Below, in pieces: positions 5,876 through 26,472 of a stretch of 39,202 nucleotides of DNA. The stretch lies in NCBI GenBank assembly GCA_964389405.1, contig CAYMDS010000001.1, forward strand, positions 1-39,202. The letters are read 5' to 3'. The stretch comes from an uncultured Gammaproteobacteria bacterium. Lineage in GTDB: Bacteria; Patescibacteriota; Microgenomatia; Levybacterales; UBA12049. The first letter of the stretch is position 1. The number at the start of each line of letters is the position of its first letter. Position numbers and translations under genes: made by a program. The notes under the pieces were generated by a model. It worked only from the letters and a program-made list of their open reading frames with translations. It was not told where the DNA came from and did not search any database.

Positions 5876-7702
5876 ATGTGGTTACCGCCTTTATTTATTT
5901 CAGTTATAAATTTATCGAATTTCTTTATAGATAAATTTCCGAATATAGACTGGTATCCTTTTTGGTATTTAGGTAATCCTTATAGATTTCTCACAGGTCC
6001 TGTTATACCTTTTGCGTTATATTTGTTTTCTTTAGTTTCAATTCCAGGTTATGTTGCTTATTGTCTGATTATAGCTTTAAGTCTAATTTTAGGTGGATTA
6101 GGGCTATTCTTCTATTTTAAATTTAACGGAGTAAGTAAATCCAATTCTTTTTTTCCTGCTTTGTGTTTTATTTTTATCCCAATAATGTATATAGTTCTTC
6201 CTTATCAAAATGGTCTTAAATATATAGCTATAGGTATATATCCACTGCTTTTTTTACTGTATCAGAAAAGTCTGATTTCACCTACTAAGCTTAAGGGGTT
6301 TATTTCTTCTTTTATAATTACTTTTATTCTTCTTATAAATAGTTCTTCCTTTTTACCTTTATTCATAGCGTTAATTGCTTTAGTCATTTCAGAAAAGGAT
6401 AAAGGTAGAGAAAAAAATGTTTTGGAACTGATTCTATTTATATCTCTTGCTATTTCATTATCTTTATTTTGGTATACACCTGAATATATCGGGATAATTT
6501 TAATGAATCCATCAATTGGCGGCTTGCCGCTTATTAAAGTATCAAGTAATTTATTTAATTTACTATTTCAGCTCTTGCCTATTATTTTTGCTTTATTGAT
6601 TTCTAAATTTAAATACTTGAAGCTTTCGGGCTTTAAATTTTTTTCTGTTACATTTTTCGCATCTTTAGTTTTTTTATCATTCATTCGATTTATCGCTGAT
6701 CCGGATTTTATCATGGACTGGACCGGGTTTTTTCCTGAGATTCAGTTGGCGCTAGCTATGGTTATCAGTAGCTTCAGTAAAGAGTTTAAGAAAAAAGGAT
6801 ATGTAATATTAGCTACAGTTTTTATTTTATTTTATGGATACATCGTTTTAACTGTTTACCACACTGACTTTAGTAATGGTTTTGAGAATAAATATAAAAC
6901 CAGAATAGAACAAACTCTCTCAAATAATGTGAAGCCTAATAATCGTATTTTTTTATCAGGTAATCCTGTTTTTTGGTTAAGCGATAGAGATGAAATCATG
7001 CAGGTTCGAGGAGGAAATGATCTGGGGAGTATTAATACTTGGTGGATGCATGGAGCATATCAAATACGTGAAGGCGATGATGCATCGCTTGCTGCAGTCT
7101 GGTTAAGAATATTTGGTGTATCTTATATACTAATAAATTCAAAAGATTCTGAAGAATATTTTAAAGATTTTAAAAACATCGAAAGATATAGAGATAGTAA
7201 GTATTTTAGCTTGCAATATTATGAAAAAGGCAACTTTCTGTATAAAGTAAAAAATTCAGCTCTTGTGCGTATTGCTGATGTTGGAATTTTAAGTACGCCC
7301 TCGCCTAGAGACGGCGCTGATGTTAGAAATTTATTAGCTTACGCTGGGAATTTTAAGCAGGAGATAGAATTCAGATCCAATAAGTCTAATCAAATTATAG
7401 TATCTGGAGAAATGAAAAAAGATGAGGTGATATCTTTAGCTGTTTCATTTGATAGAAACTGGAAAATCGAAAAAGGTGAAGGAAGAATACTTGGTGATGC
7501 GTTGGATAATATAGTTATAATGCCGGAAAAGCATGGAAAGCAGGAATTTATATTGAAATATAAAAGAGATTTTTTTGATTGGGCTATACCAATGATTTTT
7601 TCTATGATTATTATATTCATGATTTATCGCACTGAACGGATAATATTATTTATAAAAAGAATCATAAGCAAATTTTCTCTAGGTCTTCAGGATGATTACT
7701 AG
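5876..7702 (+). CDS. Large polytopic membrane protein, GT-C-fold-like glycosyltransferase candidate (YfhO/ArnT/PMT-type architecture)
   Basis: 608 aa: ~10+ TM helices, a ~250-aa extracytoplasmic domain and a final C-terminal TM helix. The C-terminal SFDRNWKIEKGEG..ILG..VIMPEKHGKQEFILKY pattern resembles that of the 1074-aa protein at 21621. Confidence 0.5.
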   Translation: MWLPPLFISVINLSNFFIDKFPNIDWYPFWYLGNPYRFLTGPVIPFALYLFSLVSIPGYVAYCLIIALSLILGGLGLFFYFKFNGVSKSNSFFPALCFIFIPIMYIVLPYQNGLKYIAIGIYPLLFLLYQKSLISPTKLKGFISSFIITFILLINSSSFLPLFIALIALVISEKDKGREKNVLELILFISLAISLSLFWYTPEYIGIILMNPSIGGLPLIKVSSNLFNLLFQLLPIIFALLISKFKYLKLSGFKFFSVTFFASLVFLSFIRFIADPDFIMDWTGFFPEIQLALAMVISSFSKEFKKKGYVILATVFILFYGYIVLTVYHTDFSNGFENKYKTRIEQTLSNNVKPNNRIFLSGNPVFWLSDRDEIMQVRGGNDLGSINTWWMHGAYQIREGDDASLAAVWLRIFGVSYILINSKDSEEYFKDFKNIERYRDSKYFSLQYYEKGNFLYKVKNSALVRIADVGILSTPSPRDGADVRNLLAYAGNFKQEIEFRSNKSNQIIVSGEMKKDEVISLAVSFDRNWKIEKGEGRILGDALDNIVIMPEKHGKQEFILKYKRDFFDWAIPMIFSMIIIFMIYRTERIILFIKRIISKFSLGLQDDY

Positions 7703-7785
7703 TTGACATCGTTTTAAGACGTATTCTACTCTAAAAACAGGAGCTAATCTATTAGCTAGATGAGTTTAATCAGAAAAGGCTTAAT

Positions 7786-9135
7786 ATGGAAAATGAAAAA
7801 GTTAAAAGAGGTATAGATTTTTCAAATAGAGTTGGGGAAGGACAATCAGCAGCTTACCGCAAATCCTTATCTTGGTGGCGTGGTGGAAAACTTAATAAGC
7901 GTACATCTCTTTTTTTACTTTTGGTATTTAGTCTGAATTTTATAGGAGTGATACCTATTTTCCAAAGAGATGTTTCAGGGGCTTTTGAATCTTCTGCGGC
8001 GTTTATGCTAATCGCAGGGCTTTTAGAGAAATTTATATTCATTCCGACTAATATATTTTTTACAAGTATTACGATAATATCGCTTTCCATAGCACCTTTA
8101 TCTTTCTATCTATTTATAAGAAAGATCGCTTTGCGTCATGAATTGACTGCGTTAATTGCCACATTAATATATATATTTCCCAATCCATTTTTCGACTACA
8201 CCCCATCCCTTGGTGCAGCTATAATTTATGGTGATGGAGCGCATGCTGTAGTTTTTTCATTTCTCCCTTTATTTCTTCTGTACGTTGAATCATTTATAGC
8301 ATCAGGCATTCCTATTCTAGGAGTACTTACTATTATCGGAACAGCGATAATCGCTATTCTATCTCCGTTTATGATGTTTAATCTTATATTTATTTATCCA
8401 GTTTTGGCTGTGGCCGAAGGTTTTTTGGGTGATCTTAGGGTGAAAATGCTTAGGATGGTTTTTGTTTTTGTAGCGGCTTTTAGTCTTTCAATTTTTTGGT
8501 ATTTTCCTACATTTTTTTCACGTGGTATACAGTTATCGCATGTTGTCTATACTATTGACAAGAGCTTTCACCTTTTTCCTTTATTAATACCATTAGTTCC
8601 TCTCTTCGGCGCATTATTTTTTCTGGTTTTCGATAGAAGAAAAAGATTAAAACCTATTTTTATAGGCGCGTCTTTGCTGATTATTTATGTAATGTTTTTC
8701 ACTGCCAGTCGGGATATCATGATCGGGGGTGTATTTACTCCTGAGCGTTATAGGCTAGAGCTAAATTTCGCGTCCTCCATAACCTTATCATTACTTGTTA
8801 TTATTTTTACTGAAACATTTATGAGGGATGCTTTAAAGTATAGAAAGAACAAAGTATTTTTTGCATTTATACTGGTTCTCACTTTTGCCTCGGTTGCCAT
8901 ATTCGTTTTAATGGGTTTATTATCTGTTTATAGCTCATATCTTTTTATGAAGCTTGAGCCTACTCAAAGAAGTAGTGGTATAGGCATCGGCAATCTGGTG
9001 CGAATTTTTCGCTTTGATGATATTCCATCTCTGATTATGGATTTTATTTCTCTCGGAACTTTTATTTTTCTACTCTATATTCTTAAGGCTTATCCTTCAT
9101 TACATAAAAAAATTCCCAAAACATCTTCGGCTTGA
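7786..9135 (+). CDS. Polytopic integral membrane protein (about 11-12 TM helices); glycan polymerase/ligase or GT-C-like candidate
   Basis: 449 aa, almost entirely hydrophobic helices, sitting between a GT-C-like gene and a GT4 gene. No diagnostic motif recognised. Confidence 0.35.
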   Translation: MENEKVKRGIDFSNRVGEGQSAAYRKSLSWWRGGKLNKRTSLFLLLVFSLNFIGVIPIFQRDVSGAFESSAAFMLIAGLLEKFIFIPTNIFFTSITIISLSIAPLSFYLFIRKIALRHELTALIATLIYIFPNPFFDYTPSLGAAIIYGDGAHAVVFSFLPLFLLYVESFIASGIPILGVLTIIGTAIIAILSPFMMFNLIFIYPVLAVAEGFLGDLRVKMLRMVFVFVAAFSLSIFWYFPTFFSRGIQLSHVVYTIDKSFHLFPLLIPLVPLFGALFFLVFDRRKRLKPIFIGASLLIIYVMFFTASRDIMIGGVFTPERYRLELNFASSITLSLLVIIFTETFMRDALKYRKNKVFFAFILVLTFASVAIFVLMGLLSVYSSYLFMKLEPTQRSSGIGIGNLVRIFRFDDIPSLIMDFISLGTFIFLLYILKAYPSLHKKIPKTSSA

Positions 9136-9252
9136 AAGAGTTCTTCAATTATAGTACGCTGAATATAGTAATTAGCATCTGATGCGAGGTTGTAGCTTAA
9201 ATGGAGCATTAAGTTTGGTTAGTTCAATTCTTTAACTATTAGTATCTGTCCA

Positions 9253-10512
9253 ATGAGAAAGAAAAAGACTTTACATATCGCCCTTGTTCATTGTGGCTTC
9301 GCCTATTCCGGCGGCGGAGAGCGACTTATTATTGAGGAGGCCCGGGGTTTAGTGAAGAAAGGACACCATGTAGATGTTTTTGTTCCAACATGGAATAAAG
9401 CTTTATGCTACCCAGATGTTCTCAAAAAGATTACAGTTTACACGCTTTTTCCTTTTATTCCCTTGAACATTCCAATGAAGCACGCGTTGGAGCAAGTCTT
9501 CGCTGCATTATTAGTGCCTTTTTATTCATTCCGTTTTCTAAAATACGATATTTTGATAGGTGCTAATCAGCCCGGTGCCTGGATAGCATATTGTGTCTCT
9601 AAAATGCTTAGAAAGCCATATGTAGTTTACATGAACCAACCGAATAGACTTTTATACCCTCGGAAAATTGATATAAAGGAAAAATGGGCAAATATAAAAG
9701 ATTATGCATTTGTCCATTCTTTAATAGTTAAGCTGAAATTTTTCGTTAATATTGCAGATAAAGTATCATTTACAAGAGGGAGCTCGATTTTAGTGAATGG
9801 TGATTACATTGGGAGCATAATCCAAAGAATTTATAAGAAGGATTTCATAACATGTCCGGCTGGCGCTTACCCCCAGGATTTTTCCCTTCTTCGTGTAAAC
9901 CCTCATACAGCTTATGTTGGTAAGTTTAGCTTTCGGAATAAAGACGGCATGAAATTTGATATAGAAAAGCCATATGTACTCATAACGAACAGACATCAGC
10001 CCCAAAAACGATTTGACTATGGAATTAAGGCATTTAATATATTCAGAAAAAGATATCCTGATATGAAGCTTATTATTCCTGGTCCGTTTACGGATGAAAC
10101 TAATAAATTGAAAAAAATCGTCAATAGATTAAAGCTTAATAATTATGTACTTTTTGTCGGACAGATATCTGAGAAAGATTTACAGAAGCTTTATCGTGAA
10201 TCAGTTCTTTATATTTATACAGCACCCGAAGAGGATTACGGGATGGGAATTGTTGAGGCGATGGGATGGGGAGTGCCTGTGGTCGCTTGGAATCATGCTG
10301 GACCGACAGTTACTATAAAAGATGGATTAACAGGCTATTTGGCAAAGCCATATGACATAACAGATTTTGCTGAGAAAATGCATGAGGCTATTAAAATAAT
10401 GCCTGAGAGAGCCGAGATGGGAAAGCGTGCCTGGAACCATGTGCGAGATAATTTTTCTTGGGATAGTCACATAAATATCCTGGAGCGATCTCTGTACCAA
10501 GCCCTAGCCTAA
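9253..10512 (+). CDS. Glycosyltransferase, GT-B fold, family 4-like
   Basis: N-terminal SGGGERLIIEE and a C-terminal E-x7-E motif (PEEDYGMGIVEAMGWGVPVVAWNHAGP). Paralog of 24848..26191. Confidence 0.85.
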   Translation: MRKKKTLHIALVHCGFAYSGGGERLIIEEARGLVKKGHHVDVFVPTWNKALCYPDVLKKITVYTLFPFIPLNIPMKHALEQVFAALLVPFYSFRFLKYDILIGANQPGAWIAYCVSKMLRKPYVVYMNQPNRLLYPRKIDIKEKWANIKDYAFVHSLIVKLKFFVNIADKVSFTRGSSILVNGDYIGSIIQRIYKKDFITCPAGAYPQDFSLLRVNPHTAYVGKFSFRNKDGMKFDIEKPYVLITNRHQPQKRFDYGIKAFNIFRKRYPDMKLIIPGPFTDETNKLKKIVNRLKLNNYVLFVGQISEKDLQKLYRESVLYIYTAPEEDYGMGIVEAMGWGVPVVAWNHAGPTVTIKDGLTGYLAKPYDITDFAEKMHEAIKIMPERAEMGKRAWNHVRDNFSWDSHINILERSLYQALA

Positions 10513-10579
10513 TACAGAAAAGTAATAATAGATAAATTATTTTGATATAAAACTCTAGAATACATTTTAATTTTTAGTG

Positions 10580-10601: not shown

Positions 10602-10608
10602 TATATAT

Positions 10609-11040
10609 ATGCCTAGAGCATCGAAAAGAAAAATTAGATCAGAGCTCCTGGAAGAAATGCGTGACAACTTCGCATTCCTAATTTCGTCTTTAACTATTTC
10701 ATCTGATATCCAAAGTTTTTTTACAGTTTTTTTGACAGAAGAAGAAAAAATTATGCTTACCAAACGGTTGATGATTCATCTGATGCTTAAAAGCGGTTAT
10801 GAGATTTCTGAAATATGTGCTACTGTCGGTGTGAGTCGGGAAACAATCAGGACACATAAATCAGTTTGGATTACGAGTGATGAAAAATATAAAAAACTTA
10901 TAGCGAAATTAGCACAAAGAAAAAAGACTAAAGAGTTCTGGAAGAAAGTGGAAAAAGCTTTAAAGCCGTTAGAGTATGCTCTAACAGCGAAAACCAATAT
11001 GAAATCCCGCGCGAAACTATTTGATTACTCCTCTGACTAG
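10609..11040 (+). CDS. TrpR/YerC-YecD family helix-turn-helix regulator
   Basis: 143 aa. LTEEEKIMLTKRLMIHLMLKSGYEISEICATVGVSRETI matches the Trp-repressor-like fold pattern (helices plus an HTH ending in SxxTI). Confidence 0.7.
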   Translation: MPRASKRKIRSELLEEMRDNFAFLISSLTISSDIQSFFTVFLTEEEKIMLTKRLMIHLMLKSGYEISEICATVGVSRETIRTHKSVWITSDEKYKKLIAKLAQRKKTKEFWKKVEKALKPLEYALTAKTNMKSRAKLFDYSSD

Positions 11041-11119: not shown

Positions 11120-11941
11120 TCAGTTACTTAAAACTTGTCTTACGGTCTCATTTAATCTGTCGGCTGCTTCGGTGGTTGCAGCGCTTGGGTAGTTGGCCAT
11201 TATCCATAAAGGTTTATTTGTTTCCCGTCTAGCCTTAAGCACTCTGTTCAGATCATAAATTAACTGATCCTCAGTCCATCCGGCTTTAACATATAAACCA
11301 TGTGTATTAGGTAGTAATGGATTAATATCTACTCCAGAAGTTGCGGCGTATTCAGTATCTCTTACGTCAGGCCCGCTTACAAATACGAATCCTCTTTCTC
11401 CGGGTTTTTCTTCAATCCAGCGTTCTATTTTTTCACCCTTTCCGACTAGAGCATGATTTTCAGCCAGTAATACCGCACCTGTAGATTCCAGTTCTCTTTG
11501 AAATTTCTCGCTCAATCTTTTCCTCCAGCCTCCATTATGTCTTTTTAATACCGGCCAGTGCCAGCTGATAGTAGCATCGGTTTCAGCGACTAGTATTCCT
11601 GTTGCTTTTCGCCAGAAGGGCATCGAAACCGCCAGACTCTGCGGCCAACGCATTAAGTAATTTACAAAAGAATCATTGGCGGCTGGTTTAGGTGAGACAA
11701 TTCTATCTATCATCCAGGGTGGATGGATATTAACAACATAATCCTCTAAAAGATGATCAGAATTTGCTCGTGGTTTACTTAATAATTCAAAAACTGTACC
11801 TGGACTTGGTATTGGTTCATAGGCATTATAACCCATGGATGTGGCGCCAATTATACCTTTTGTTAATGGATCATAAAGCTTTCTTTGTCCTGAAGCGATA
11901 TAGGCTGCTTCTGATAATCCTACTCTAACAATTTCTGCCAT
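11120..11941 (-). CDS. Hypothetical protein (273 aa), no recognisable motif; visibly GC-richer than its neighbours
   Basis: Long ORF with non-repetitive, globular-looking composition (W/P/G-rich). Opposite strand to the flanking glycan genes. Confidence 0.6.
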   Translation of the reverse strand: MAEIVRVGLSEAAYIASGQRKLYDPLTKGIIGATSMGYNAYEPIPSPGTVFELLSKPRANSDHLLEDYVVNIHPPWMIDRIVSPKPAANDSFVNYLMRWPQSLAVSMPFWRKATGILVAETDATISWHWPVLKRHNGGWRKRLSEKFQRELESTGAVLLAENHALVGKGEKIERWIEEKPGERGFVFVSGPDVRDTEYAATSGVDINPLLPNTHGLYVKAGWTEDQLIYDLNRVLKARRETNKPLWIMANYPSAATTEAADRLNETVRQVLSN

Positions 11942-11992: not shown

Positions 11993-12598
11993 TCAATATT
12001 CCTCAATTGCCTCGGGGGTTTGGATGGTGAGCTGTCGTGAGCAGGAGTCGTAGTTGCCGGTGGCGTAAACTGCCTTGTCTTTAAACGGAGTAAATGAAGC
12101 ATCGCGTCCGCGATTGAGGTGGATTGTAGTATTATCAGATAATTCGAGAATGTAGCGGTATCTCGGACTGGTATTGTCATCTGGTGAAAGAAAATTGCTG
12201 AAGTATTTAATTATTCTTTGAATTTTTGCAACTACATGATCCGGTTCTGTATCGGTTACTTTAAGAACTTTTACTACTCCTTTATGTGTTTGTACTCCTT
12301 TATCACATAGAGCATGGGTCGTTCCGAAAAAACCGAGAAACGAAAGAGCCAGTGCTACACCCATAATACCAATGGACCCCTTAAGAGTAAATGAAAAAGC
12401 TTTTTGTTTTTTAATTTCTTCAAGAAGTTCTGTAATTCTACGTAGAGGATTACCGATGTGGACATTTATAAGTGTATCGTCATCAGATGTTTCTGAAACC
12501 TTTGTTTTATTTAGGACAGCAGATGTTACGGGATCTTTTTTCACAACTGTTTCGACTTGTGGTGCAGCATTTGATGGAAGCTTAGTAGACTCATCCAT
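11993..12598 (-). CDS. Hypothetical single-pass membrane protein (201 aa)
   Basis: Polar N-terminal region, one TM helix (IGIMGVALALSFLGFFGT) and a ~100-aa C-terminal domain. Lies 51 nt upstream of, and co-oriented with, 11120..11941. Confidence 0.55.
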   Translation of the reverse strand: MDESTKLPSNAAPQVETVVKKDPVTSAVLNKTKVSETSDDDTLINVHIGNPLRRITELLEEIKKQKAFSFTLKGSIGIMGVALALSFLGFFGTTHALCDKGVQTHKGVVKVLKVTDTEPDHVVAKIQRIIKYFSNFLSPDDNTSPRYRYILELSDNTTIHLNRGRDASFTPFKDKAVYATGNYDSCSRQLTIQTPEAIEEY

Positions 12599-12685: not shown

Positions 12686-14344
12686 ATGAGTGAACCTGCA
12701 AAACATCAGTCTGAAAATCATCTTAATGACTGGATGAAAAAAATACATGATGCGTCTTTTAAACACCAGGCTCCTTTAGAAATTGATGAAAAGAGTAAAG
12801 AAGGTAAAGAAAGCTTAAGAAATGTATCGGCCATTAAATCATATGATCATATAATAATAGGATTTTTCCTCCTCTTGGGCCTTTTATATCGTCTGGTAGT
12901 TATTTTCTTTATAACAGGCACAGAGAATGCAGGTGTAGGGTGGTATGGAGATACTTATCATCATTGGCAAATAGCGTATCTGACTAAGACGACAGGGTTT
13001 TCTCATGGCTTTCTTCGTTTATGGGATCTGAAAGGAATGGAGTATTTTTGGGGACTTTTACATCCGCTTTTGATGAATTTTTTATTTTTAATTACCGGTA
13101 GTACGAATATTATTCTTAGTAGAATGCTGAGTACGGGATTTGGTTTAGCGTCTGTCTATATGTTATTTCTTCTTGGAATGAGGTATTTTGGCAGAAGAGT
13201 AGCCTATGCAATTGCTTTTTTTAGTGCTTTTTTTTCGATTGCAGTTTTTAATGACGCGTCCGGAATGCTTGAGCCGATAGGTTTATTTTTTATGTTACTA
13301 GGTATCTATACATGGCCCAGGTTGCCATTTATGACTGCAATTTCTTTTGTGCTGGCATCTATGGTGCGCGCGGAAATGTGGGTTTTCAGTATTGGTTTAC
13401 TTTTCGGAATTTTAATAAAGCCTGGAAATACACACCGAAAAACTATAGTTATATTATTATGGTCAATTTTCATGGTTCTTTACATGAAATATTTTTTGGA
13501 TCATACAGGAAACGCTATCTATCCGATATATTGGAACTTCCTGGCGAATGCACTTGGGGAGTGGGCTGGAGATGATCCTTTAACCTCCCTTCAGCTTACG
13601 GTACGACCTATCCTGATGGTAATAGGAGCAATAAGTGCGGTAATGCTTGGTTTTATTATTTATAAGCGCCCAAAAAACATACTGCTTCTTCTTCTAGGAT
13701 TTGGCAATATTTTTTTCGTGACCAGCTTTATGGGTTTTGGACACTATATTCATGGTTGGGAGTGGTGGTTTCCGGTAATTCGTTTTTTTGTATTTCCGTA
13801 TATGTTCGCTGCCTTAATGCTATTTGCATTGATTAATAAATTAAGGATAGGCAGTCAGGCTATGGTAAGTGTTTTGGTGATGCTTGCGGTAGGGGTTTTG
13901 ACCGTTACTACACAATTGGCCTGGGTGCCAATTCTTCAAAGATTTAAAGAGACACGTCCAGAGTGGGAGCGAAGCATAAGCTGGGGACGGGAAGTTGGAA
14001 AATACTATAAAGAAGGTACTCTTCTTTTTCCCGACGGTGATCCGCATTTTACTTATACTTCTGTGCAGTATGGGCATGTTGAAGGGCAAAATATACTGAG
14101 TCAAATGTTTGACCCTTTTTATTATATAGATGAAGATCAAGTATTTGGGCAGTGGAGTAAGTACAAGAAAGCAATTAATAATGACTGGATTAAAAAACAC
14201 GATATACGCTTAGCTGTTTTTCGGACCGACACTGAAAGATATATAAGACTTATAGAAAAAGAGCCTGAAATTTTTGAAAAGGTTTCAACATTGGAAGGAG
14301 GGGTATATGAAATATGGCGAATTTATCCGGAAAAGATAAGATAA
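12686..14344 (+). CDS. Polytopic membrane protein, GT-C-fold-like glycosyltransferase candidate
   Basis: 552 aa: ~12 TM helices followed by a ~140-aa soluble C-terminal domain. An early loop reads GWYGDTYHHWQIAY. First gene of a + strand operon with overlapping downstream genes. Confidence 0.45.
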   Translation: MSEPAKHQSENHLNDWMKKIHDASFKHQAPLEIDEKSKEGKESLRNVSAIKSYDHIIIGFFLLLGLLYRLVVIFFITGTENAGVGWYGDTYHHWQIAYLTKTTGFSHGFLRLWDLKGMEYFWGLLHPLLMNFLFLITGSTNIILSRMLSTGFGLASVYMLFLLGMRYFGRRVAYAIAFFSAFFSIAVFNDASGMLEPIGLFFMLLGIYTWPRLPFMTAISFVLASMVRAEMWVFSIGLLFGILIKPGNTHRKTIVILLWSIFMVLYMKYFLDHTGNAIYPIYWNFLANALGEWAGDDPLTSLQLTVRPILMVIGAISAVMLGFIIYKRPKNILLLLLGFGNIFFVTSFMGFGHYIHGWEWWFPVIRFFVFPYMFAALMLFALINKLRIGSQAMVSVLVMLAVGVLTVTTQLAWVPILQRFKETRPEWERSISWGREVGKYYKEGTLLFPDGDPHFTYTSVQYGHVEGQNILSQMFDPFYYIDEDQVFGQWSKYKKAINNDWIKKHDIRLAVFRTDTERYIRLIEKEPEIFEKVSTLEGGVYEIWRIYPEKIR

Positions 14345-16160: not shown

Positions 16161-16168
16161 TTTTACTT

Positions 16169-18541: not shown

Positions 18542-19292
18542 AATTATTTATAAAACTTTTAAACTGTATCAAATCATGAGTGATATCCACGTTTATATCA
18601 GAATCGATTACTGAACTCAATGGTCGTCTAGCTTTATTGAAGTGGTTTTTATATTTTGTTTTTAGAACCCTTTTTTTATCTATCAAAAATACATCACAAA
18701 ATAGTTTCGCAAATTTATACCAGCTAATCTTTTTCTTACTAAAAACATTTATTATTCCGGACTTGTCTTTGTTATTAAAGATTTCAAAAGCGACCCTATT
18801 TATTGAGACAGGATTTATAAACATATTTATATAAGTATTAGTTTTTTTTCCTTGTAGTAGATTATTTACGATATAGGTTTTTTTACTATAAAAATTTGTA
18901 CGAATAATTAAAGATTTATCTCCCAATAATTTCTCGCCGAATAACTTTGACCATCCGTAAATATTTCGAGGTTTAAACGCATAGTCCGTTGAAATATGAA
19001 TCAGTTTTTTATTATATTTTTGACATGCTTCTAGGATGTATGATGGTGCGAGTCCGTTAACATTAAATGCTTTAGCAGGATTTTTTTCACATAATTCTAT
19101 ATCTGTGATCGCTGCGCAGTTGATAACGTACTTTCCTGAAAAAGGAATTAAGACCTTATAAATTTCGTGAGGATTTGTTATATCACAACTGTTACGATCA
19201 TAAGATATCGTCTCATTTCTGTACACATTTATAAATGTACGTGCAAGTATTGAGTCGGCGCCAAAAATTAAGTATTTAGGTTTTTTATTCAT
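18525..19292 (-). CDS. RmlD-like NAD(P)-dependent sugar-nucleotide reductase (short-chain dehydrogenase fold)
   Basis: YLIFGADSILAR N-terminal Rossmann-like segment, VINCAAITDIELCEKNP and LIHISTDYAF (cf. the RmlD STDYVF motif). Overlaps the deacetylase gene by 17 nt. Confidence 0.65.
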   Translation of the reverse strand: MNKKPKYLIFGADSILARTFINVYRNETISYDRNSCDITNPHEIYKVLIPFSGKYVINCAAITDIELCEKNPAKAFNVNGLAPSYILEACQKYNKKLIHISTDYAFKPRNIYGWSKLFGEKLLGDKSLIIRTNFYSKKTYIVNNLLQGKKTNTYINMFINPVSINRVAFEIFNNKDKSGIINVFSKKKISWYKFAKLFCDVFLIDKKRVLKTKYKNHFNKARRPLSSVIDSDINVDITHDLIQFKSFINNYGNKR

Positions 19293-19344: not shown

Positions 19345-20346
19345 ATGAAAAATGGACTAGTTTCTGTCATTATCGTAACCTTAAACAATTTGGAGTGGTT
19401 AAAAAAGTGCTTAAACGCTTTGAATGATCAGGAATATAAGAATATAGAAGTTTTCGTAGTCGACAACGGCTCATCAGATAACACCGTTTCTTATTTAAAA
19501 AAACATATGCCTGAAATAATTTGTATTACGTCTGGGGAAAATATAGGATTTGGCAGAGCATGTAACCTGGCTTTAAAAAAGGCTAATGGGGAATATGTTC
19601 TTATATATAATGACGATGCAATCTGTGAAAAAGATTTTATAAAAAAATTGGTAGTAAGAATTAAAAAAGAACCATTAATTGGTGCGATACAAGGAACTCT
19701 ATTATTTGCTGACAGAAGAAATATTATTGAGTCCGCAGGGGCATATCTGACGCCTACCGGAATTCTCATAAAAGATTTCGGGGGAGAATTTGATGAGAAG
19801 TTAGCTCTCGAAAAAGAAGTTTTTAACGCTAATTTGCCGCTTATCAGAATGTCCGTGCTTAAGAAAGTCGGGTTTTTTGATGATGATTATTTTTTGTATT
19901 TCGAAGAAGCAGATTTATGTTGGCGAATATGGCTTTCGGGAAGTAAAATATTATATCATCCTAATGCGAAAATTTATCATGCAAGGGGTGTAACCACGAA
20001 GCGTCTACAAGCCCCTGTAATCGTAGAAAGCACTTTTCGTAACAGGATAAATTCACTTATAAAAAATTTAGAACCCGGCAGTCTTTTAAAGATTCTTCCA
20101 TTTCATCTTACAATTTGCATTGGTGGAATGATGGCCTATATTTTGAAGGGTAAGCCCCAAGGAGCAATGGCGATACTAAAAGCCTTAATATGGAATATTA
20201 AATCGATAAATAATACTTTGAAAAAAAGGAAAATAATAAATCGAATGAGAAAAAGAAAAGACTCTGAATTGCTGCCAATCATAATGCGACCTATGTCTGC
20301 CTCATATCTTATGAAAACTTCTTTAGATTATTTAAGGCAATGGTAA
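19345..20346 (+). CDS. Glycosyltransferase family 2 (GT-A fold)
   Basis: VSVIIVTLNN..., VVDNGSSDNT, YNDDA and the FEEADLCWR motif, with a C-terminal hydrophobic segment. Confidence 0.85.
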   Translation: MKNGLVSVIIVTLNNLEWLKKCLNALNDQEYKNIEVFVVDNGSSDNTVSYLKKHMPEIICITSGENIGFGRACNLALKKANGEYVLIYNDDAICEKDFIKKLVVRIKKEPLIGAIQGTLLFADRRNIIESAGAYLTPTGILIKDFGGEFDEKLALEKEVFNANLPLIRMSVLKKVGFFDDDYFLYFEEADLCWRIWLSGSKILYHPNAKIYHARGVTTKRLQAPVIVESTFRNRINSLIKNLEPGSLLKILPFHLTICIGGMMAYILKGKPQGAMAILKALIWNIKSINNTLKKRKIINRMRKRKDSELLPIIMRPMSASYLMKTSLDYLRQW

Positions 20347-21575
20347 AAATAAATAAGGGTAGCTACTATACGCGTAAACGTTGCAGGCTTTGTATATCCA
20401 ATAATTTACGTTTAGTTATCGATTTCGGTTTCATGCCTCATGCAGGGAATTTCCTAACAAGAGAAGAAATCGGTAAAGAAAAATATTATCCTCTTCGTAT
20501 ATTTCTTTGTGTGGACTGCTTACTTTTGCAGATTATTGATATAGTTCCGTCAAATGTACATTTTAGTGATTATCGATATATTTCATCTGTCGGATTAAGT
20601 GACCATTTTACGCAATTTGCTAAGGAGTTAAATATGCCTAAGAACAGTTTCATAGTCGAAATAGGAAGTAATGATGGTGTTCTGCTTAGGCCTTTATTAG
20701 ATCGGGGATACCGCGTCTTGGGAGTTGATCCTGCTAAAAATATTGCACAGATAGCTAAAAAAAAAGGTATACCTATGATTATCGATTACTTCACAGAAAA
20801 AGTGGCATCAGATATCGAATCAAACTATGATAAAGCTGATGTCATTATCGCAAATAACGTCTTAGCGCATATTGACAATATGGATAATGTTTTTTTCGGT
20901 ATTAAATGTTTATTAAAAACAGACGGTGTGTTGATTTTCGAAGTACATTACCTTCCGGAGTTAATAGATAAACTCCAGTACGATTTTTTCTATACTGAAC
21001 ACCTAAGTTATTATATGCTGCATTCGCTTAAGCCTTTTTTAGATAAATATGGTTTTAGTATAACAGATGTCAAAGTTATTCCTGTTCATGGCGGTTCTAT
21101 CAGAGTATACGCAAAACAAAAAAATGGGAAGGTTCCGGAATCAAAAAATGTGACGGATTTAATGAAAAGAGAGGAAGATCTGCTAAATCCTAAGGCATAT
21201 CCTTTATTTGCTAAAAAGATTAATGGACATAAAAAACAACTTCTGCATTTACTACAAAGATTGAAGCAGGAAGGTAAAAAAGTAGTAGGATATGGAGCAT
21301 CAGGACGGGCAAATACAGTTCTAAATGCTGCAGGTATTGACGGGAGTTTACTTTCATATATAGTAGATGCGTCAATAGAAAGGTATAATCGTTTCACTCC
21401 AGGTGTACATATTCCCATCGTTTCACCTTCTGAGTTTCATGATGATAATGTAGACTATGCACTTCTTTTCGCGTGGAGTTATAAAGAAATGATACTTAAA
21501 AAAGAAAAGAAATTTATTAAAAACGGCGGTAAATTTATAATACCCTTTCCTTCAATTGACATTATCCCAAAGTAG
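20340..21575 (+). CDS. NDP-sugar C-methyltransferase-type enzyme (Zn-ribbon + class I SAM MTase + C-methyltransferase C-terminal domain)
   Basis: N-terminal CRLC...CVDC zinc-ribbon pattern, VEIGSNDGVLL SAM motif and a ~150-aa C-terminal domain (VGYGASGRANTVLN). Overlaps the GT2 gene by 7 nt. Confidence 0.7.
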   Translation: MVKINKGSYYTRKRCRLCISNNLRLVIDFGFMPHAGNFLTREEIGKEKYYPLRIFLCVDCLLLQIIDIVPSNVHFSDYRYISSVGLSDHFTQFAKELNMPKNSFIVEIGSNDGVLLRPLLDRGYRVLGVDPAKNIAQIAKKKGIPMIIDYFTEKVASDIESNYDKADVIIANNVLAHIDNMDNVFFGIKCLLKTDGVLIFEVHYLPELIDKLQYDFFYTEHLSYYMLHSLKPFLDKYGFSITDVKVIPVHGGSIRVYAKQKNGKVPESKNVTDLMKREEDLLNPKAYPLFAKKINGHKKQLLHLLQRLKQEGKKVVGYGASGRANTVLNAAGIDGSLLSYIVDASIERYNRFTPGVHIPIVSPSEFHDDNVDYALLFAWSYKEMILKKEKKFIKNGGKFIIPFPSIDIIPK

Positions 21576-21620
21576 TCTTTTATATTGAGGAATCTGAGAA
21601 AAAAGAAGTATAATTAAATC

Positions 21621-24600
21621 GTGAATCCTAAAAAAACTTCAGTTATTTTTTTATCTTCCCGTTTTATCGTTAATACGTTATTTATAGTTTTTAGCTTAGG
21701 AGTTATTCTATTTCTGGCATACTTTTTTGGCTTTCGTATTTTAAGAAATCCGCTTTCAGGAAATGATGCCATTAATAATTTAACGTATGCATCATGGATT
21801 GCTGAGTATTACCCTAAAATTCCGCTTTGGTATCCACTAGCTGGGGGAGGAACGTCGTTTCTTATCGGATATCCAAGCCTTTATTCATGGAGTGCAGCTG
21901 TACTTCATAAAAATACTTCGTTAACTCTTATCCAGGCAATGGGTGTATTAAGCTTCGCGTGTTTATTACTTCCTGCCTGGAGTGTTTTCGCATTCGTATG
22001 GATGCGTTTTAAAATGCGGCCGGCAGCACTTTTTGCAGGCATCTTTTATTTACTTTCACCTATTTCATATGTTCTTATATCAGGTGCCGGATTTCTATCA
22101 CACGCATACTCATATATATTTACTGTACCCTTTTTTATTTTTTATGATATGTATCTTGGGTCATGGCTTCATAAGACTTCAAATACGAAAAAAATATTTG
22201 CTTTACTTATGGCTGGTATATTCTTCGTATTAACTACTTTGGCCCATCCTGTATCTTCGCTTGGTTTTATGGTGATTTTCGGTTTTTATAGTCTTTTCTT
22301 AGGCTTTTGTACGAATAGATTCAGGGGTATAAAAAGAGGTTTTATTGCGATTCTCACAGCAGCGATTGTTTTTTATTTACTTTCATTTTTCTGGTTTAAG
22401 CCATTTCAGGATTTCACCGGTTTTTCCAACCGAGATATAACCTTTACAGCCAATACAGAAACGCTGCCACCAGTTAAGTTCGCCGGTATGCTGGGTTTAA
22501 TCGGTCCGCAGACGGGTTATCCATTTCCTAACTTATCAATTGTGCCATTTGTTTGGATCATGGCATTAATTGGTACGTTTTTGGGTTTACTTAAAAAAAA
22601 CTATAAATTATTTTTGCTTGGTTTATTGGGATTTTTTAGTTTATACCAGACCGGAACTTATACTTTATGGATTTTATTAACAAAAATTAATTGGTTACTA
22701 GGCTCTTTTTTTGTCAATCGATATTATTACACATCGACAGCTATTCTTCCTCCGATAGTCGCAGGAGTTGGATTGTGGTATTTAGTCAGTTTGCCGATAG
22801 ATCCCCTGACTAGAAGAATAAAGAAGCTACATGTGGTGCTTTCTTTCCCATATAAACTTATTGCATCATCGGTTCTGATGATTAGTGCAGTAGTGATCTT
22901 ACTGGGAGGTCTTTTTTATTTTAATCACTTCAGCGGTTACAGCAGTCCCCGAAAACCTTGGTTATTTCATTATGGGGAGGAAGGTGGTGTTCCATTAAAA
23001 TTCATATGGAACAGATCTTTAGAAGATTTTTGTGATAGAAGTTCTAAAAACTATAATGAAGTTTTATGTGAAAATCCTGCAGTGAATAAATATGTAGAGC
23101 CGGCTACTTTTCTTTTTTATTGTGATCAATATGCTTATAAGGATAAAAAGAATAGACCTTATCAATGTGCTGGGAACGTAAAAGAAAGTGATATGGCTTC
23201 ATTTGTAGATACATGTAAAAATAAAACTTATACCTCGCCTTATTATGAGGATTTGTGTCTTTCTGTGTCAAAGACCCCAGCGGAGCAACTTTTGCATTGG
23301 CCTTCGGTCCGTTTGTCAGATTCTACACTAAAAGAATTACATACCGCGTCATTTTTGAGAGCAGACAATCCTTACAATTATTTATCAAAATATGAAATAC
23401 GTTTGGATATTACACCAGGACTCGGAACATGGACAAAAGAATGGGGTGTGAATAATAGAAGTAGTATTATAAACGCTTATACAGGACAGCTAGTTTTGAA
23501 CAAATCCTTTCAAAGTTACTTTAGAGATGTGATGTTCTCAAAAGATTTGGTAAAAAGCTCTCTTGCAATCGATGAAGCTGCAAAATATTACGGGACATCC
23601 GCGATAATTAATACAGGGAATGACCAGACATCTAAATTCCAAGATCAATTGTGGAAAAATGAGAAGCTTAAAGAAGGAGGCACGATCTGGGTTCCTCCAT
23701 TCCAAACAGGTATTTACGATCTTAAACAAAATAATAAAGTATTAGTAATTGGTACCAAGAATAAACAGGCATATAAGCAAATATTCCAGCTTGCTACTTT
23801 AGGTGTTATGCCTTATGAAAAGGCTTTACTCTTTGAGGGGAAAGAACATATCGACAGTTACTCCCAAAATGAGTTGGATAAATATAATTTAATAGTTCTC
23901 CATGGTTATTCATATAAAAATAAAAATAAAGCGTTTTCGTATCTTAAGCAGTTTTTAGAAAACGGAGGAAATGTATTTATAGATACAGGCTGGCAGTTCG
24001 TATCAAAAGATTGGGGAGGCGAGAAAGGTACGGAGTTTCCTGAGTGGTTTCCTGTTAAAAAAATTCAGTGGGGAAGTGCCGGAAGTAGTTGGGCTAACGC
24101 CGTAGTAGATTCAGAGTCAATTGGAAATATTTCATTAGCCGATTTTAATCCGTTAACATGGGAAGATACTTCATGGGGGCTTTCTTATGCAGAATCTAAA
24201 GATGTAGCCGGAACTCCTCTTATTACTATTTCCGGGAAGGTTATAGCAGCTTATAGACAGTTTGGGAAAGGAAGAATAGTGTGGTCAGGAATGAACTTGC
24301 CTGCTCATGCATTAGGTCCTGAGAACGAAGAAGAGATCCGGTTTATAACAAGAGTCTTTGAAGATCTCATTGAGAAGAATATAAATGTTAATTTATCGAA
24401 ATATAAAATTGAACGATCGCCTGATGTATTGAAAGTTGTATTTAATGGTAGTATACCACCGGAAAGCACATTTTATTTTAAAGAAGCATATCATCCATAC
24501 TGGAAGGCTGCGATAATAAAGCAAGGTAGTGGTAAAAAAACAATGCTACCGATAGAATCTGTCGGACCGCGGTTTATGGGTGTAGTACTCGACGAATTGC

Positions 24601-24845
24601 AGCCAGGAGATATACTTGTTATGACGTTTGAAACGTCAAAAATATTATTGATAACTTCTATTGTTTCTTTTTTGACATTTATTATATTAATATTTTTATT
24701 CATAGATATGCTTTTGACAGGAGGTAGAATAGTTCGAAGCTTACCTTTGAAAAATATTAAGACAGAAATACCTGGTGCCCATATCTTAAAGAGCCAAGTC
24801 CGAAAAATGAAGGATTCAGTTATCAAGGATGAAGAAGAATATTAA
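21621..24845 (+). CDS. Very large polytopic membrane protein (1074 aa), GT-C-fold/YfhO-like glycosyltransferase candidate
   Basis: ~430-aa multi-TM N-terminal domain, ~560-aa extracytoplasmic domain, then AYHPYWKAAIIKQGSG...MGVVL..PGDILVMTFE and a terminal TM helix. This is the architecture I associate with YfhO-type GT-C enzymes. GTG start. Confidence 0.5.
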   Translation: MNPKKTSVIFLSSRFIVNTLFIVFSLGVILFLAYFFGFRILRNPLSGNDAINNLTYASWIAEYYPKIPLWYPLAGGGTSFLIGYPSLYSWSAAVLHKNTSLTLIQAMGVLSFACLLLPAWSVFAFVWMRFKMRPAALFAGIFYLLSPISYVLISGAGFLSHAYSYIFTVPFFIFYDMYLGSWLHKTSNTKKIFALLMAGIFFVLTTLAHPVSSLGFMVIFGFYSLFLGFCTNRFRGIKRGFIAILTAAIVFYLLSFFWFKPFQDFTGFSNRDITFTANTETLPPVKFAGMLGLIGPQTGYPFPNLSIVPFVWIMALIGTFLGLLKKNYKLFLLGLLGFFSLYQTGTYTLWILLTKINWLLGSFFVNRYYYTSTAILPPIVAGVGLWYLVSLPIDPLTRRIKKLHVVLSFPYKLIASSVLMISAVVILLGGLFYFNHFSGYSSPRKPWLFHYGEEGGVPLKFIWNRSLEDFCDRSSKNYNEVLCENPAVNKYVEPATFLFYCDQYAYKDKKNRPYQCAGNVKESDMASFVDTCKNKTYTSPYYEDLCLSVSKTPAEQLLHWPSVRLSDSTLKELHTASFLRADNPYNYLSKYEIRLDITPGLGTWTKEWGVNNRSSIINAYTGQLVLNKSFQSYFRDVMFSKDLVKSSLAIDEAAKYYGTSAIINTGNDQTSKFQDQLWKNEKLKEGGTIWVPPFQTGIYDLKQNNKVLVIGTKNKQAYKQIFQLATLGVMPYEKALLFEGKEHIDSYSQNELDKYNLIVLHGYSYKNKNKAFSYLKQFLENGGNVFIDTGWQFVSKDWGGEKGTEFPEWFPVKKIQWGSAGSSWANAVVDSESIGNISLADFNPLTWEDTSWGLSYAESKDVAGTPLITISGKVIAAYRQFGKGRIVWSGMNLPAHALGPENEEEIRFITRVFEDLIEKNINVNLSKYKIERSPDVLKVVFNGSIPPESTFYFKEAYHPYWKAAIIKQGSGKKTMLPIESVGPRFMGVVLDELQPGDILVMTFETSKILLITSIVSFLTFIILIFLFIDMLLTGGRIVRSLPLKNIKTEIPGAHILKSQVRKMKDSVIKDEEEY

Positions 24846-24847
24846 TT

Positions 24848-26191
24848 ATGGTGAAAAAAAAACTTAAAATTGCTATTTTTCATTTAGCCTTTTTGTATTC
24901 AGGGGGCGGAGAACGACTAGTTCTGGAAGAGGCGATCAGGCTTAAAAAGTTGGGACACTCAGTTACTTGTTATACGCCGGCTTTTGATGAACAAAAGTGT
25001 TTTCCAGAACTTATGAAAAAAGTGGAGTTGCGGCGTATACTTCCTAGAATTCTACCCGGATGGTATCCAGATAGCGCGCTTTTATCTATTTTAGCTACCT
25101 GTGTTTTGACTCCTTTATTTTTCTATAAATTTAGAAAATACGATATTTACTTCGGGGCAAATCAGCCAGGTCCTTGGATCGCTTTTCTGCTATCTATAAT
25201 TAATAGGAAGCCGTACGCGATTTATCTTGCCCAACCTACTCGTCTTATTCATCCTAGATTAATTGATCAGCAAGTAGGATTAAGGCTTTTATTTGGTTTC
25301 AGTATGCTAAATATACTTACAAATGTTTTTCGGCCTTTCATATGGTTGTTTGATTTTGTAAGCATAAAAAACGCAACGACTGTTTTCGCTAATGGGACAT
25401 ACGCCAGGGGTTTATTGGAGGAAGTTTATCGTATAAAAGCCACCAACTGTCCTGCCGGAAGTAAAAAACAAATCAGAATCACAAAAGATATGATTTCCAA
25501 TAGATTTAGAGGTGAAGAAGTGCTAAATCAAATTAAGATTAAAAAACCATATATCTTAATTACTAACAGACATTTTCCTCATAAAAAATTTGAATATGGA
25601 CTTGAAGCTTTCCAGAAGTTAAAAAGAAAAAAATTAAGTCTGGTTATAGCCGGACAGGAGACTGACTATACGAAACACTTAAAAGCTAATTATCTGAAGG
25701 ATAAAAGAATATATTTCGTGGGACTCCTATCTGAGAAAGATTTACATTCTGCGTATCAGCAAGCATCTGTATATATATACCCAGCACCTGAAGAAGATTT
25801 TGGTATGGGAATAATAGAAGCTATGAGTTATGGAGTGCCTGTCGTCGCGTGGGGTAATGCAGGACCCACTGGTATTATAAAGCACGGTTATGACGGATTT
25901 CTCGCCAAGCCTTTTGATACAGATAATTTTTCTTTTTATATCCACAGTCTACTTCGTAACAGATCGACTTATGAAAAAGTAGCAATAAACTCTCAGGAAA
26001 AGATAACAAAGCATTTTAGTTACGCAAAACATATAAAGATTCTAAGTATAGGTTTTAAAAAAACTATTGTTTTATGGAAGAAAGGATTCTCTGACAAAAA
26101 AATATTTAAGAAGCGAAGAATATTAACTGGAGCACTTGAAAGGTTAGATATTTCTAGAATATCGGTAGGGAATATACACATTCGTAAATGA
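24848..26191 (+). CDS. Glycosyltransferase, GT-B fold, family 4-like (paralog of 9253..10512)
   Basis: SGGGERLVLEE, GANQPGPWIAF and PEEDFGMGIIEAMSYGVPVVAWGNAGP (E-x7-E). Starts 2 nt after the 1074-aa gene. Confidence 0.85.
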   Translation: MVKKKLKIAIFHLAFLYSGGGERLVLEEAIRLKKLGHSVTCYTPAFDEQKCFPELMKKVELRRILPRILPGWYPDSALLSILATCVLTPLFFYKFRKYDIYFGANQPGPWIAFLLSIINRKPYAIYLAQPTRLIHPRLIDQQVGLRLLFGFSMLNILTNVFRPFIWLFDFVSIKNATTVFANGTYARGLLEEVYRIKATNCPAGSKKQIRITKDMISNRFRGEEVLNQIKIKKPYILITNRHFPHKKFEYGLEAFQKLKRKKLSLVIAGQETDYTKHLKANYLKDKRIYFVGLLSEKDLHSAYQQASVYIYPAPEEDFGMGIIEAMSYGVPVVAWGNAGPTGIIKHGYDGFLAKPFDTDNFSFYIHSLLRNRSTYEKVAINSQEKITKHFSYAKHIKILSIGFKKTIVLWKKGFSDKKIFKKRRILTGALERLDISRISVGNIHIRK

Positions 26192-26472
26192 GACAGCGAA
26201 AAGAAATATCCAGTCACAATATAGTCCATTATTTATTTACTGTAGTAGAATATATCTTTAAAGGGATAATTCAAGGAGTAGAGTGGTTATTTGTAGCCAT
26301 AGCAGGGTTTTTTATCTTTCAGACTAAGAAAACTCCCTATGATATCCTTATAGGATTACCTCTCTTTTTAATTGGTATAGGATTCGTTTTGAATAATCTA
26401 ATTACAGTATTTTTTAGCGTGTTATCATATAGATATAACAGGGGGGTTTGTCGCTGGTGCGATAGAAGATAA
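26188..26472 (+). CDS. Small membrane protein (94 aa, 2-3 TM helices) with C-terminal CxxC
   Basis: ATGA start/stop overlap with the GT4 gene. Hydrophobic helices and a C-terminal GVCRWCDRR. Confidence 0.5.
   Translation: MRQRKEISSHNIVHYLFTVVEYIFKGIIQGVEWLFVAIAGFFIFQTKKTPYDILIGLPLFLIGIGFVLNNLITVFFSVLSYRYNRGVCRWCDRR

Follow-up and report, generated by a model that had tools for sequence, protein, structure and literature searches.

A putative envelope-glycan island with four GT-C-fold homologues beside a mini-exosortase and its cargo in a Patescibacteria genome

Gene content of the locus

The gene island described here occupies positions 5876–26472 of a 39,202-nucleotide (nt) stretch of DNA (the window), which is the whole of contig C1 of genome G000 (1.28 Mb in 172 contigs, approximately 90% complete). 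Homologues of its proteins carry the names Levybacteria, Daviesbacteria and Patescibacteria. The island encodes four large polytopic membrane proteins together with soluble glycosyltransferases (GTs) and sugar-modifying enzymes, and it lies downstream of the genes for an exosortase-family enzyme and for the giant surface protein that this enzyme is predicted to process. A first-pass annotation had suggested that the two parts form a combined ‘sort and glycosylate’ pathway, and the comparisons reported below support such a link.

The two sorting components lie outside 5876–26472 and belong to the same system. The gene at 3–4181 (+) encodes the C-terminal ectodomain of the giant exosortase cargo (1392 amino acids (aa), with its 5' end open at the contig start), and the gene at 4207–4824 (+) encodes a mini-exosortase/archaeosortase-family protein of 205 aa (TIGR04178, 4.9e-12; PF09721, 4.3e-9). 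The island itself begins with two polytopic proteins: g608 (608 aa; 5876–7702, +), of GT-C fold and PF10131 type, has an outer beta-rich domain and a C-terminal transmembrane (TM) helix, and g449 (449 aa; 7786–9135, +) is a GT-C-like, membrane-only paralogue of the g608 TM domain. Further downstream are four genes of what will be described as a cassette core: the glycosyltransferase GT4a (9253–10512, +; PF00534, 7e-31); the polytopic g552 (552 aa; 12686–14344, +), a PMT_2/ArnT-like GT-C homologue; a class-I S-adenosylmethionine (SAM) methyltransferase (14314–15144, +; PF08241, 4e-24), whose gene overlaps the end of g552 by 31 nt; and the polytopic g1074 (1074 aa; 21621–24845, +), GT-C-like and of PF10131 type, which combines some 11 TM helices with an outer domain of some 570 aa and has a TM helix at its C-terminus. 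Paired with g1074 is GT4b (24848–26191, +; PF00534, 1e-31), a paralogue of GT4a.

The stretch is 97% coding, and 6 of its 17 gene junctions overlap by 4–31 nt, in line with the overlapping start and stop codons remarked upon at first pass. The genes listed at that stage (four polytopic proteins, two GT4s, a GT2, a short-chain dehydrogenase/reductase (SDR), an RmlD-like reductase, a PIG-L deacetylase, a formyltransferase and two methyltransferases) were all recovered as stated in comparisons with Pfam, NCBIfam and the PDB. The reported lack of Wzx, Wzy, an ABC exporter and an initiating (priming) phosphotransferase likewise holds for the open reading frames of at least 100 aa in the whole 39-kb window. 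Two Bac_transf genes are present in the genome, on contigs other than C1.

The polytopic proteins as GT-C homologues

Each of the four polytopic proteins contains 10–13 hydrophobic segments, and these counts agree with the helix maps of AlphaFold2 models of g608 (pLDDT 85.7) and g552 (pLDDT 91.9). When the models were compared with the PDB using Foldseek, the top 26 matches of g608 and the top 29 of g552 were all GT-C-fold proteins with a probability of at least 0.98, and ArnT aligned with g552 at a TM-score of 0.51. The fold matches include AftD, STT3, PglB, AglB, DPY19, AftA, AftB, ArnT, ALG9, PIG-M and Pmt, as well as the non-catalytic glycosylphosphatidylinositol (GPI)-transamidase subunit PIG-U.

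Profile comparisons extend this assignment to the families and to the remaining two proteins. PF10131, counted at E values up to 0.01, is matched by 19 of 43 members of the g608 family (best E 1e-14) and by 9 of 10 members of the g1074 family, while PF13231 (PMT_2; GT39/GT83-like) is matched by 30 of 63 members of the g552 family (best E 1e-8), a set drawn from more than 760 homologues. Both models belong to the GT-C Pfam clan CL0111, and PF10131 is without known function (PMC7801869). One g552 homologue bears the NCBI name ‘glycosyltransferase family 39 protein’. In hhalign comparisons with the g608 family, g449 (whose own family has 116 representatives) aligned with a probability of 99.6 and an E value of 4e-24, and g1074, a more distant paralogue, with a probability of 97.8 and an E value of 9e-13; the GT-C assignment of these two is made at profile level via g608, models having been built for g608 and g552. 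All four polytopic proteins are thus homologues of GT-C-fold membrane glycosyltransferases, g552 being PMT_2/ArnT-like and g1074, g608 and g449 PF10131-like. They would be expected to use donors linked to polyprenyl phosphate or polyprenyl diphosphate.

In the g552 family D89 is invariant (63/63) in the first outer loop, as are H92 and H93, and D114 and E119 are also conserved there; the first outer loop of the g1074 family has an invariant D49 (10/10). On this evidence g552 and g1074 look catalytically canonical.

Two of the GT-C families named for checking at first pass, YfhO and GT66, found no support. The polytopic proteins gave no match to YfhO (PF09586) even at E = 10. An oligosaccharyltransferase of the STT3/PglB/AglB type (GT66) was rejected, the WWDxG motif being found in none of the four and the STT3 model being matched by only one of the 63 g552-family members. 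No relatives were found in PDB sequence and profile searches (g1074; A1, A2 and A3 profiles), fold comparison alone having worked, and NCBIfam was matched neither by the four proteins nor by ten homologues.

The fold searches bear directly on one explanation of the locus, that of ordinary O-antigen or capsule synthesis beside an unrelated sorting module, with the polytopic proteins acting as Wzy/WaaL-like polymerases or ligases, or as transporters. Sugar-nucleotide genes, a GT2 and GT4s such as those found here are indeed typical of O-antigen and capsule loci. Transporters, however, surfaced only at E > 0.3 in the g608 and g552 searches, all leading matches being GT-C, and a transporter identity was rejected; in addition, the window has no Wzx, Wzy, ABC exporter or priming gene, and synteny with the exosortase is kept across phyla. 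We regard the probability of this explanation as close to negligible.

Conservation of the cassette and its link to the exosortase

Conservation was assessed in 201 sampled genomes of the order and in a cross-phylum set of 80 g552-family loci, one genome per species being scanned. Exosortase homologues are present in 8 of the 201 genomes. Strong matches to g608 occur in seven genomes, all of them exosortase-positive, strong matches to g552 in five, again all exosortase-positive, and g1074-family matches in seven, six of which are exosortase-positive; the corresponding Fisher p values (3e-12, 2e-8 and 2e-9) ignore shared ancestry and represent only 4–6 genera. Cassette genes adjoin the exosortase gene in G000, in four further genomes of our numbering (G100, G180, G098 and G025) and in two metagenome contigs (L002 and L005) with 41–66% identity to the window.

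Patescibacteria, Dormibacterota and Chloroflexota supplied the 80 g552 loci, together with a small number of other bins, and the GC content of the loci ranges from 0.31 to 0.71. The same mini-exosortase is found in 56 of them and a GT4a-like gene in 69; for the methyltransferase the count is 50, and for g1074-like genes 42. Gene order is nearly constant, running exosortase-(g449)-GT4-g552-methyltransferase-...-g1074, and of the 56 loci with 6 kb or more of sequence upstream, 43 have the exosortase. The usual cassette consists of a GT2 synthase with a sorting tail, the mini-exosortase, g608 and g449, a GT4, g552, the SAM methyltransferase, a sugar module, a g1074-like protein and a second GT4. 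Within it g449 is found in low-GC loci only, and both g608 and g449 are confined to Patescibacteria. From these comparisons the island appears to be the downstream half of one conserved cassette, and its link with the exosortase goes beyond adjacency. The co-occurrence and adjacency of island and exosortase that the first-pass annotation had put forward for checking is therefore seen both within the order and across phyla.

A correlation between exosortase and g552 distances (Mantel r 0.72) probably reflects shared phylogeny and was discounted as evidence. A mobile island is not favoured, GC being flat at 0.30–0.39 throughout, an integrase being absent and the rplL operon adjoining the cassette in several relatives. 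In the literature searched, no paper was found that links exosortases with GT-C/GT39 enzymes, with the Candidate Phyla Radiation/Patescibacteria or with Dormibacter. Two loci in bins labelled Bathyarchaeia and Nitrosotalea (L098 and L113), and several bins labelled ‘uncultured Gammaproteobacteria’, also carry the cassette; these archaeal and proteobacterial labels are probably the result of mis-binning or mislabelling, with horizontal transfer as the alternative.

Gene order also bears on a second explanation, in which the island encodes a lipoglycan or wall-polymer pathway that shares only its neighbourhood with the exosortase. Under this explanation the GT4s would assemble a glycolipid at the inner membrane face, the GT-C proteins would extend it outside from polyprenyl-phosphate sugars and the sorted protein would be no substrate. 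Mycobacterial lipomannan/lipoarabinomannan synthesis, with PimA/PimB plus PimE/Mpt/Aft/Emb, provides the model. The combination of two GT4s and four GT-C proteins with a DPMS-like gene elsewhere in the genome fits it, as do the presence of AftA, AftB and AftD among the fold matches and the absence of an exosortase from some g552 loci; GT4a has only generic GT4 matches in the PDB, and a PimB' structure is among them. Yet strong homologues of g608, g552 and g1074 in the order are confined to exosortase-positive genomes, and an exosortase-GT4-g552 order that is kept over a GC range of 0.31–0.71 is hard to explain by neighbourhood alone. We consider a lipoglycan pathway of this kind unlikely.

The exosortase and its cargo

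The protein encoded at 4207–4824 is the product of the only exosortase-family gene in the genome and scores 46 bits against TIGR04178, for which the cut-off is 23. The conserved residues of the family are kept almost without exception among 57 homologues (C102 in 57, R147 in 56 and H167 in 57). The curated exosortase subtypes XrtG, XrtX, ArtC and ArtF were not reached, with scores of 18–23 bits against cut-offs of 100–170.

At the C-terminus of the cargo in the window, FEFATLPEK is followed by a TM helix and a basic tail, and the motif is without the second proline of PEP; the PEP-CTERM models gave no match to the protein in Pfam and NCBIfam scans. Across loci, the gene directly upstream of the exosortase gene, often with a 4-nt overlap, encodes [IV][VI]PE[SNK] followed by a hydrophobic helix and an Arg/Lys tail. 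Relatives of the cargo are fusions of a helix-turn-helix (HTH) domain, a GT2 synthase with a QxxRW motif and an ectodomain. A homologue of the membrane GT2 synthase is present in 41 of the 80 g552 loci, and QxxRW is kept in all 40 strong homologues (E < 1e-50), nearly all of which are encoded directly upstream of the exosortase and carry a VPE-type tail. The outer extension of the synthase, which precedes the tail, is Ser/Thr-rich and about 180 aa long in Dormibacterota, and has expanded to more than 1300 aa in Patescibacteria.

In the assembly studied here the synthase domain is missing and the cargo gene is broken across contigs. The end of contig C37 (9262–10696) encodes an HTH domain, TM helices and the start of a GT2 domain, that is, the N-terminal part of a cargo, while contigs C1 and C26 have their first 55 nt (1–55) in common, and the ectodomains that they encode are paralogous, with FEF-x-T-[LV]-PE tails. 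The loss of the synthase domain is probably due to a collapsed repeat. To judge from its relatives, the protein described at first pass as a sorted surface protein corresponds to the ectodomain of a fusion with a processive GT2 synthase, and carries a sorting tail. Export by such a synthase probably explains the absence of Wzx, Wzy and an ABC exporter; we propose that these and the priming genes are lacking because export is synthase-dependent and because lipid-phosphate-sugar donors are made elsewhere in the genome.

The ectodomain encoded in the window contains, at 2650–3780 (+), about seven tandem repeats with four cysteines each (…DCK…Y… F-x-DC-x3-C), for which no family match was found. 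In a higher-GC relative (L057:1-6120) the exosortase (237 aa) is preceded by two proteins, a DUF2341/Laminin_G_3 giant of 4889 aa and one of 157 aa in which WPEP precedes a TM helix; here the exosortase subtype is unchanged but its cargo is of another kind.

The sugar-nucleotide module and soluble glycosyltransferases

Between the SAM methyltransferase and g1074 lies a set of genes for sugar modification. The first encodes a UDP-N-acetylhexosamine (HexNAc) 4,6-dehydratase of the PseB/CapE/FnlA type (15141–16160, +; PF02719 (Polysacc_synt_2), 5.5e-104), which scores 386 bits against the PseB model TIGR03589, under the equivalog cut-off of 407.75. Its catalytic motif, MxxxK at residues 143–147, is as in CapE and FnlA. 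On the opposite strand are a formyltransferase, probably a sugar N-formyltransferase (16977–17843, −; PF00551, 6e-17), a PIG-L/LmbE-family de-N-acetylase (17837–18541, −; PF02585, 2e-21) and an RmlD-like 4-ketoreductase (18525–19292, −; PF04321, 1e-29; TIGR01214, 6e-33, below the cut-off). The formyltransferase also matches the ArnA and dTDP-amino-sugar formyltransferase models; its score against the ArnA model is 60 bits for a cut-off of 777, the likeness being to the N-terminal part of ArnA only. These are followed by a soluble GT2 of GT-A fold (19345–20346, +; PF00535, 1e-29) and by an NDP-hexose 3-C-methyltransferase of the TcaB9/KijD1/TylC3 family (20340–21575, +; PF08421 and PF08484), which aligns over its full length with the structures 5t6b, 3ndi and 4rv9 of that family at E values of about 1e-75.

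No DegT-type aminotransferase was found in the window, and the cluster has no 2-epimerase. Because an aminotransferase is absent, de-N-acetylation of a GlcNAc-derived 6-deoxy sugar is the likeliest source of the amine. The PIG-L gene overlaps the formyltransferase gene, and this translational coupling suggests that an N-formyl group takes the place of the N-acetyl group. The sugar would be 3-C-methylated at the 4-keto stage before being reduced and N-formylated. An Arn (L-Ara4N) pathway was rejected, an ArnC-type membrane GT2 and an aminotransferase both being absent from the cluster.

The joint occurrence of the dehydratase, reductase, PIG-L protein, formyltransferase, GT2 and C-methyltransferase is confined to the window and its closest relatives, the reductase being missing from one such contig. 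The sugar-nucleotide genes appear to form a swappable module, since the module, including the dehydratase and PIG-L genes, is missing from G100, G025 and G098 and is replaced by another set in L056 (7279–16999; GCA_900175145.1). That locus keeps the exosortase-g449-GT4-g552-methyltransferase core, after which come genes for a sulfotransferase and a kinase, for two SDRs, a split transketolase and an acetyltransferase, and for a DegT aminotransferase. A further soluble protein encoded inside the module of the window, g250 (16169–16921, −), has no family match and no PDB relative. At the position of g250, the relative L004 has an unannotated 264-aa gene, which was not detected as a g250 homologue at E < 1e-6.

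The combination of a GT4 and a PIG-L protein is the basis of a third explanation. Such a pair is used in the synthesis of GlcNAc-PI, mycothiol and bacillithiol, and by a logic like that of GPI anchoring the GT4, PIG-L and GT-C proteins might build a glycolipid that would receive the cleaved cargo C-terminus from the exosortase, with g608 and g449 acting as PIG-U-like lipid-binding partners. The best NCBIfam matches of the GT4s are BshA/MshA and those of the PIG-L protein BshB/MshB; PIG-M and PIG-U are among the fold matches of g552; the first outer loops of g608 and g449 lack the acidic residue; the C-terminus of the cargo bears a hydrophobic signal; and the exosortase keeps its Cys, Arg and His. 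This explanation is nonetheless very improbable: PIG-L, as part of the swappable module, is missing from G100, G025 and G098 and from the majority of loci, g608 and g449 are found in Patescibacteria only, and no evidence for a lipid anchor is known from bacterial exosortase systems.

Donor synthesis and other GT-C genes in the genome

The first-pass annotation had remarked that a GT2 commonly makes the lipid-linked donor. For the island GT2 such a role found no support: the enzyme has no TM segment and its PDB relatives are chondroitin and heparosan synthase domains and GalT1, so that it is a soluble, generic GT-A enzyme and not one of the GtrB/ArnC/DPMS type. GtrA and GtrB/ArnC-type GT2 genes are absent from the island. 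An enzyme of the type sought lies on contig C45 (5095–7014), where a DPMS-like GT2 is fused to a GtrA_DPMS_TM domain. Five PMT_2-type genes are found beyond the island, one of them beside this DPMS-like gene, and on contig C2 (22492–26525) a GT2 with a C-terminal TM helix lies between two PMT_2-type genes. In total the genome contains approximately ten GT-C-type genes in 1.28 Mb.

A second pair of g1074-like (1002 aa) and GT4b-like genes is present on contig C71 (248–4582; locus L053, a 5.5-kb contig). The repetition of this pair suggests that a g1074-type GT-C protein and GT4b act as a unit.

A model for sorting-coupled glycosylation

Taken together, the data favour, with a probability of roughly 70%, a genuine envelope-glycan island whose GT-C homologues form one cassette with the exosortase and its synthase cargo, and in which glycosylation outside the membrane would be coupled to sorting. 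In the proposed mechanism, cytoplasmic enzymes would make a modified 6-deoxy-HexNAc, here probably 3-C-methylated, de-N-acetylated and N-formylated, and the GT4 and GT2 enzymes would load sugars onto lipid carriers. At the outer face of the membrane the GT-C enzymes would transfer sugars from lipid-linked donors to the Ser/Thr-rich ectodomain of the synthase fusion, to the extruded polymer or to both. The exosortase would cut the C-terminal tail of the same ectodomain, and the synthase would export its polymer, with lipid-phosphate-sugar donors being supplied by genes elsewhere in the genome. The ‘sort and glycosylate’ link has thus survived the two findings that were named beforehand as able to refute it, namely an identity of the polytopic proteins as transporters or unrelated families and a failure of island and exosortase to co-occur; the acceptor of glycosylation is part of the model.

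Several observations weigh against this interpretation, besides the shared ancestry behind the co-occurrence statistics. The proteins themselves stay below the Pfam thresholds: the hmmscan scores of g1074 (22.3 bits) and g608 (13.7 bits) on PF10131 are both under the gathering threshold of 26.4, although g1074 reaches 27.2 in a genome search that counts neighbouring in-frame matches, and g552 and g449 match no Pfam model of a GT-C family, g552 being without a PMT_2 match even at E = 10. In the g608 and g449 families the first outer loop is devoid of conserved acidic residues, which occur only further along the sequence (D281 and E288 in g608; D150 in g449), and the g608 family appears to begin after TM1. 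Since the first-outer-loop aspartate is invariant in g552 and g1074 and missing in g608 and g449, only two of the four polytopic proteins look canonical, and g608 and g449 may be non-catalytic, atypical or accessory. The DPMS-like gene has its own PMT_2 neighbour on C45, and its service to the island is therefore a guess. An exosortase is absent from 13 of the 56 loci with enough upstream sequence. Four of these, low-GC loci (L081, L084, L088 and L090), are arranged differently, as methyltransferase(−)-g552-methyltransferase-GT4b, and have no such gene within 10 kb; the g552 family is thus not always tied to an exosortase. The labels of metagenome-assembled genomes are unreliable. Finally, the extracytoplasmic transfer in this model, its acceptor, whether ectodomain or polymer, and its donors are predictions.

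The same conserved genes could also be read as a so far undescribed cross-phylum machine for surface assembly, in which the GT-C, GT4 and methyltransferase proteins would build a glycan or glycolipid acceptor, and the mini-exosortase would transpeptidate the exosortase-cleavable ectodomain of the synthase onto it. We hold this to be decidedly unlikely. If true, it would represent a bacterial counterpart of GPI-transamidase logic and the first defined acceptor for any exosortase.

Comparison with known systems

The PEP-CTERM/EpsH and XrtG systems are the closest known systems. PEP-CTERM/exosortase (EpsH, XrtA) systems are associated with exopolysaccharide loci (Haft et al. 2006, PMC1569441). 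The cassette resembles them in its Pro-Glu motif with a TM helix and a basic cluster, in its exosortase-family enzyme with Cys, Arg and His, and in its surroundings of polysaccharide genes. It differs in that the exosortase is very small (approximately 190–240 aa), the motif is [IV][VI]PE[SNK] and not PEP, and there are one or two cargoes per genome in place of many. Furthermore, the cargo here is the predicted ectodomain of a processive GT2 synthase, GT-C enzymes are dedicated partners, the hosts are Patescibacteria, Dormibacterota and Chloroflexota, and no specific NCBIfam subtype model was reached.

The XrtG system of Firmicutes comprises a Firmicu-CTERM protein, XrtG and two XrtG-associated glycosyltransferases (PMC12854382). 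It shares with the cassette an exosortase outside the classical Gram-negative hosts and an operon with a glycosyltransferase of the GT2 synthase type. By contrast, the scores here, 18 bits for TIGR03110 and 52.9 for TIGR03111, stay below the respective cut-offs of 102.75 and 363.95, and TIGR03112 (PTPS-related soluble domain) is absent from the genome; synthase and cargo are one protein here, and a PMT_2-like GT-C protein and a methyltransferase belong to the core.

Three-component systems (GtrA/GtrB/GtrC, CsbB/GtcA/YfhO and ArnC/ArnE-F/ArnT) offer a parallel in their outside-acting GT-C enzyme on a surface acceptor, which is the activity proposed here, and the genome does encode a DPMS/GtrB-type GT2-GtrA fusion. 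Unlike them, the island has no GtrB/ArnC-type GT2, GtrA or YfhO match, and has four exosortase-linked GT-C proteins with GT4s. In Haloferax, one S-layer glycoprotein is both glycosylated by a GT-C enzyme (AglB) and processed by an archaeosortase (ArtA). This system and O-mannosylation by PMT (GT39)/Ppm1 are similar in having a PMT_2- or AglB-like GT-C fold and a Ser/Thr-rich secreted target, but g552 itself has no PMT, PMT_2 or STT3 match, WWDxG is lacking and the Haloferax genes do not form one cassette. The sugar module is like the FnlA/CapE-FnlB pathway to UDP-6-deoxy-L-HexNAc and the TcaB9/TylC3 pathways in its MxxxK dehydratase, RmlD-like reductase and 3-C-methyltransferase of full-length similarity; unlike in FnlA/CapE-FnlB, there is no 2-epimerase and no aminotransferase, and a PIG-L deacetylase is coupled to a formyltransferase.

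The link between PEP-CTERM proteins and polysaccharide is still a correlation twenty years after the first description of PEP-CTERM, and to our knowledge neither the attachment partner of an exosortase cargo nor the glycosylation of such a cargo has been established. The cassette is a compact unit of approximately 6–8 genes in which cargo, sorting enzyme, polymer synthase and glycosyltransferases predicted to be dedicated to the outer face are inherited together across Patescibacteria, Dormibacterota and Chloroflexota, phyla for which we know of almost no envelope biochemistry. It supplies concrete candidates for heterologous reconstitution and places in a context three GT-C subfamilies, none of which is known to include a studied protein. 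It further reveals the investment of a 1.28-Mb genome in approximately ten GT-C-type genes.

Other genes of the window

Five genes of the island were not in the first-pass list; besides g250 these are a TrpR/YerC-like HTH gene, g273, g201 and a gene for a small membrane protein. The HTH gene (10609–11040, +; PF01371, 4.5e-7) is a lineage-specific insert, found among relatives in G180 only. The soluble protein g273 (11120–11941, −) has a homologue in no related locus and no family or PDB relative, and the single-TM protein g201 (11993–12598, −) is kept within the genus and family only. The last gene of the island, which overlaps the GT4b stop codon, encodes a 94-aa protein with two TM helices (26188–26472, +) and is kept in G098. 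A PIN-like gene between the exosortase and g608 (5013–5498, −) is kept at its position in close relatives only and falls outside the core.

The rest of the window consists of housekeeping genes (rplL, rplJ, rplA, rplK, nusG, grpE, hrcA, tsaD, infB, nusA and clpB). Between rplA and rplJ, at 28093–29196 (−), is the gene for a 367-aa protein with hydrophobic segments at both termini and a weak cohesin match. In its place the relative L001 has a 377-aa gene.

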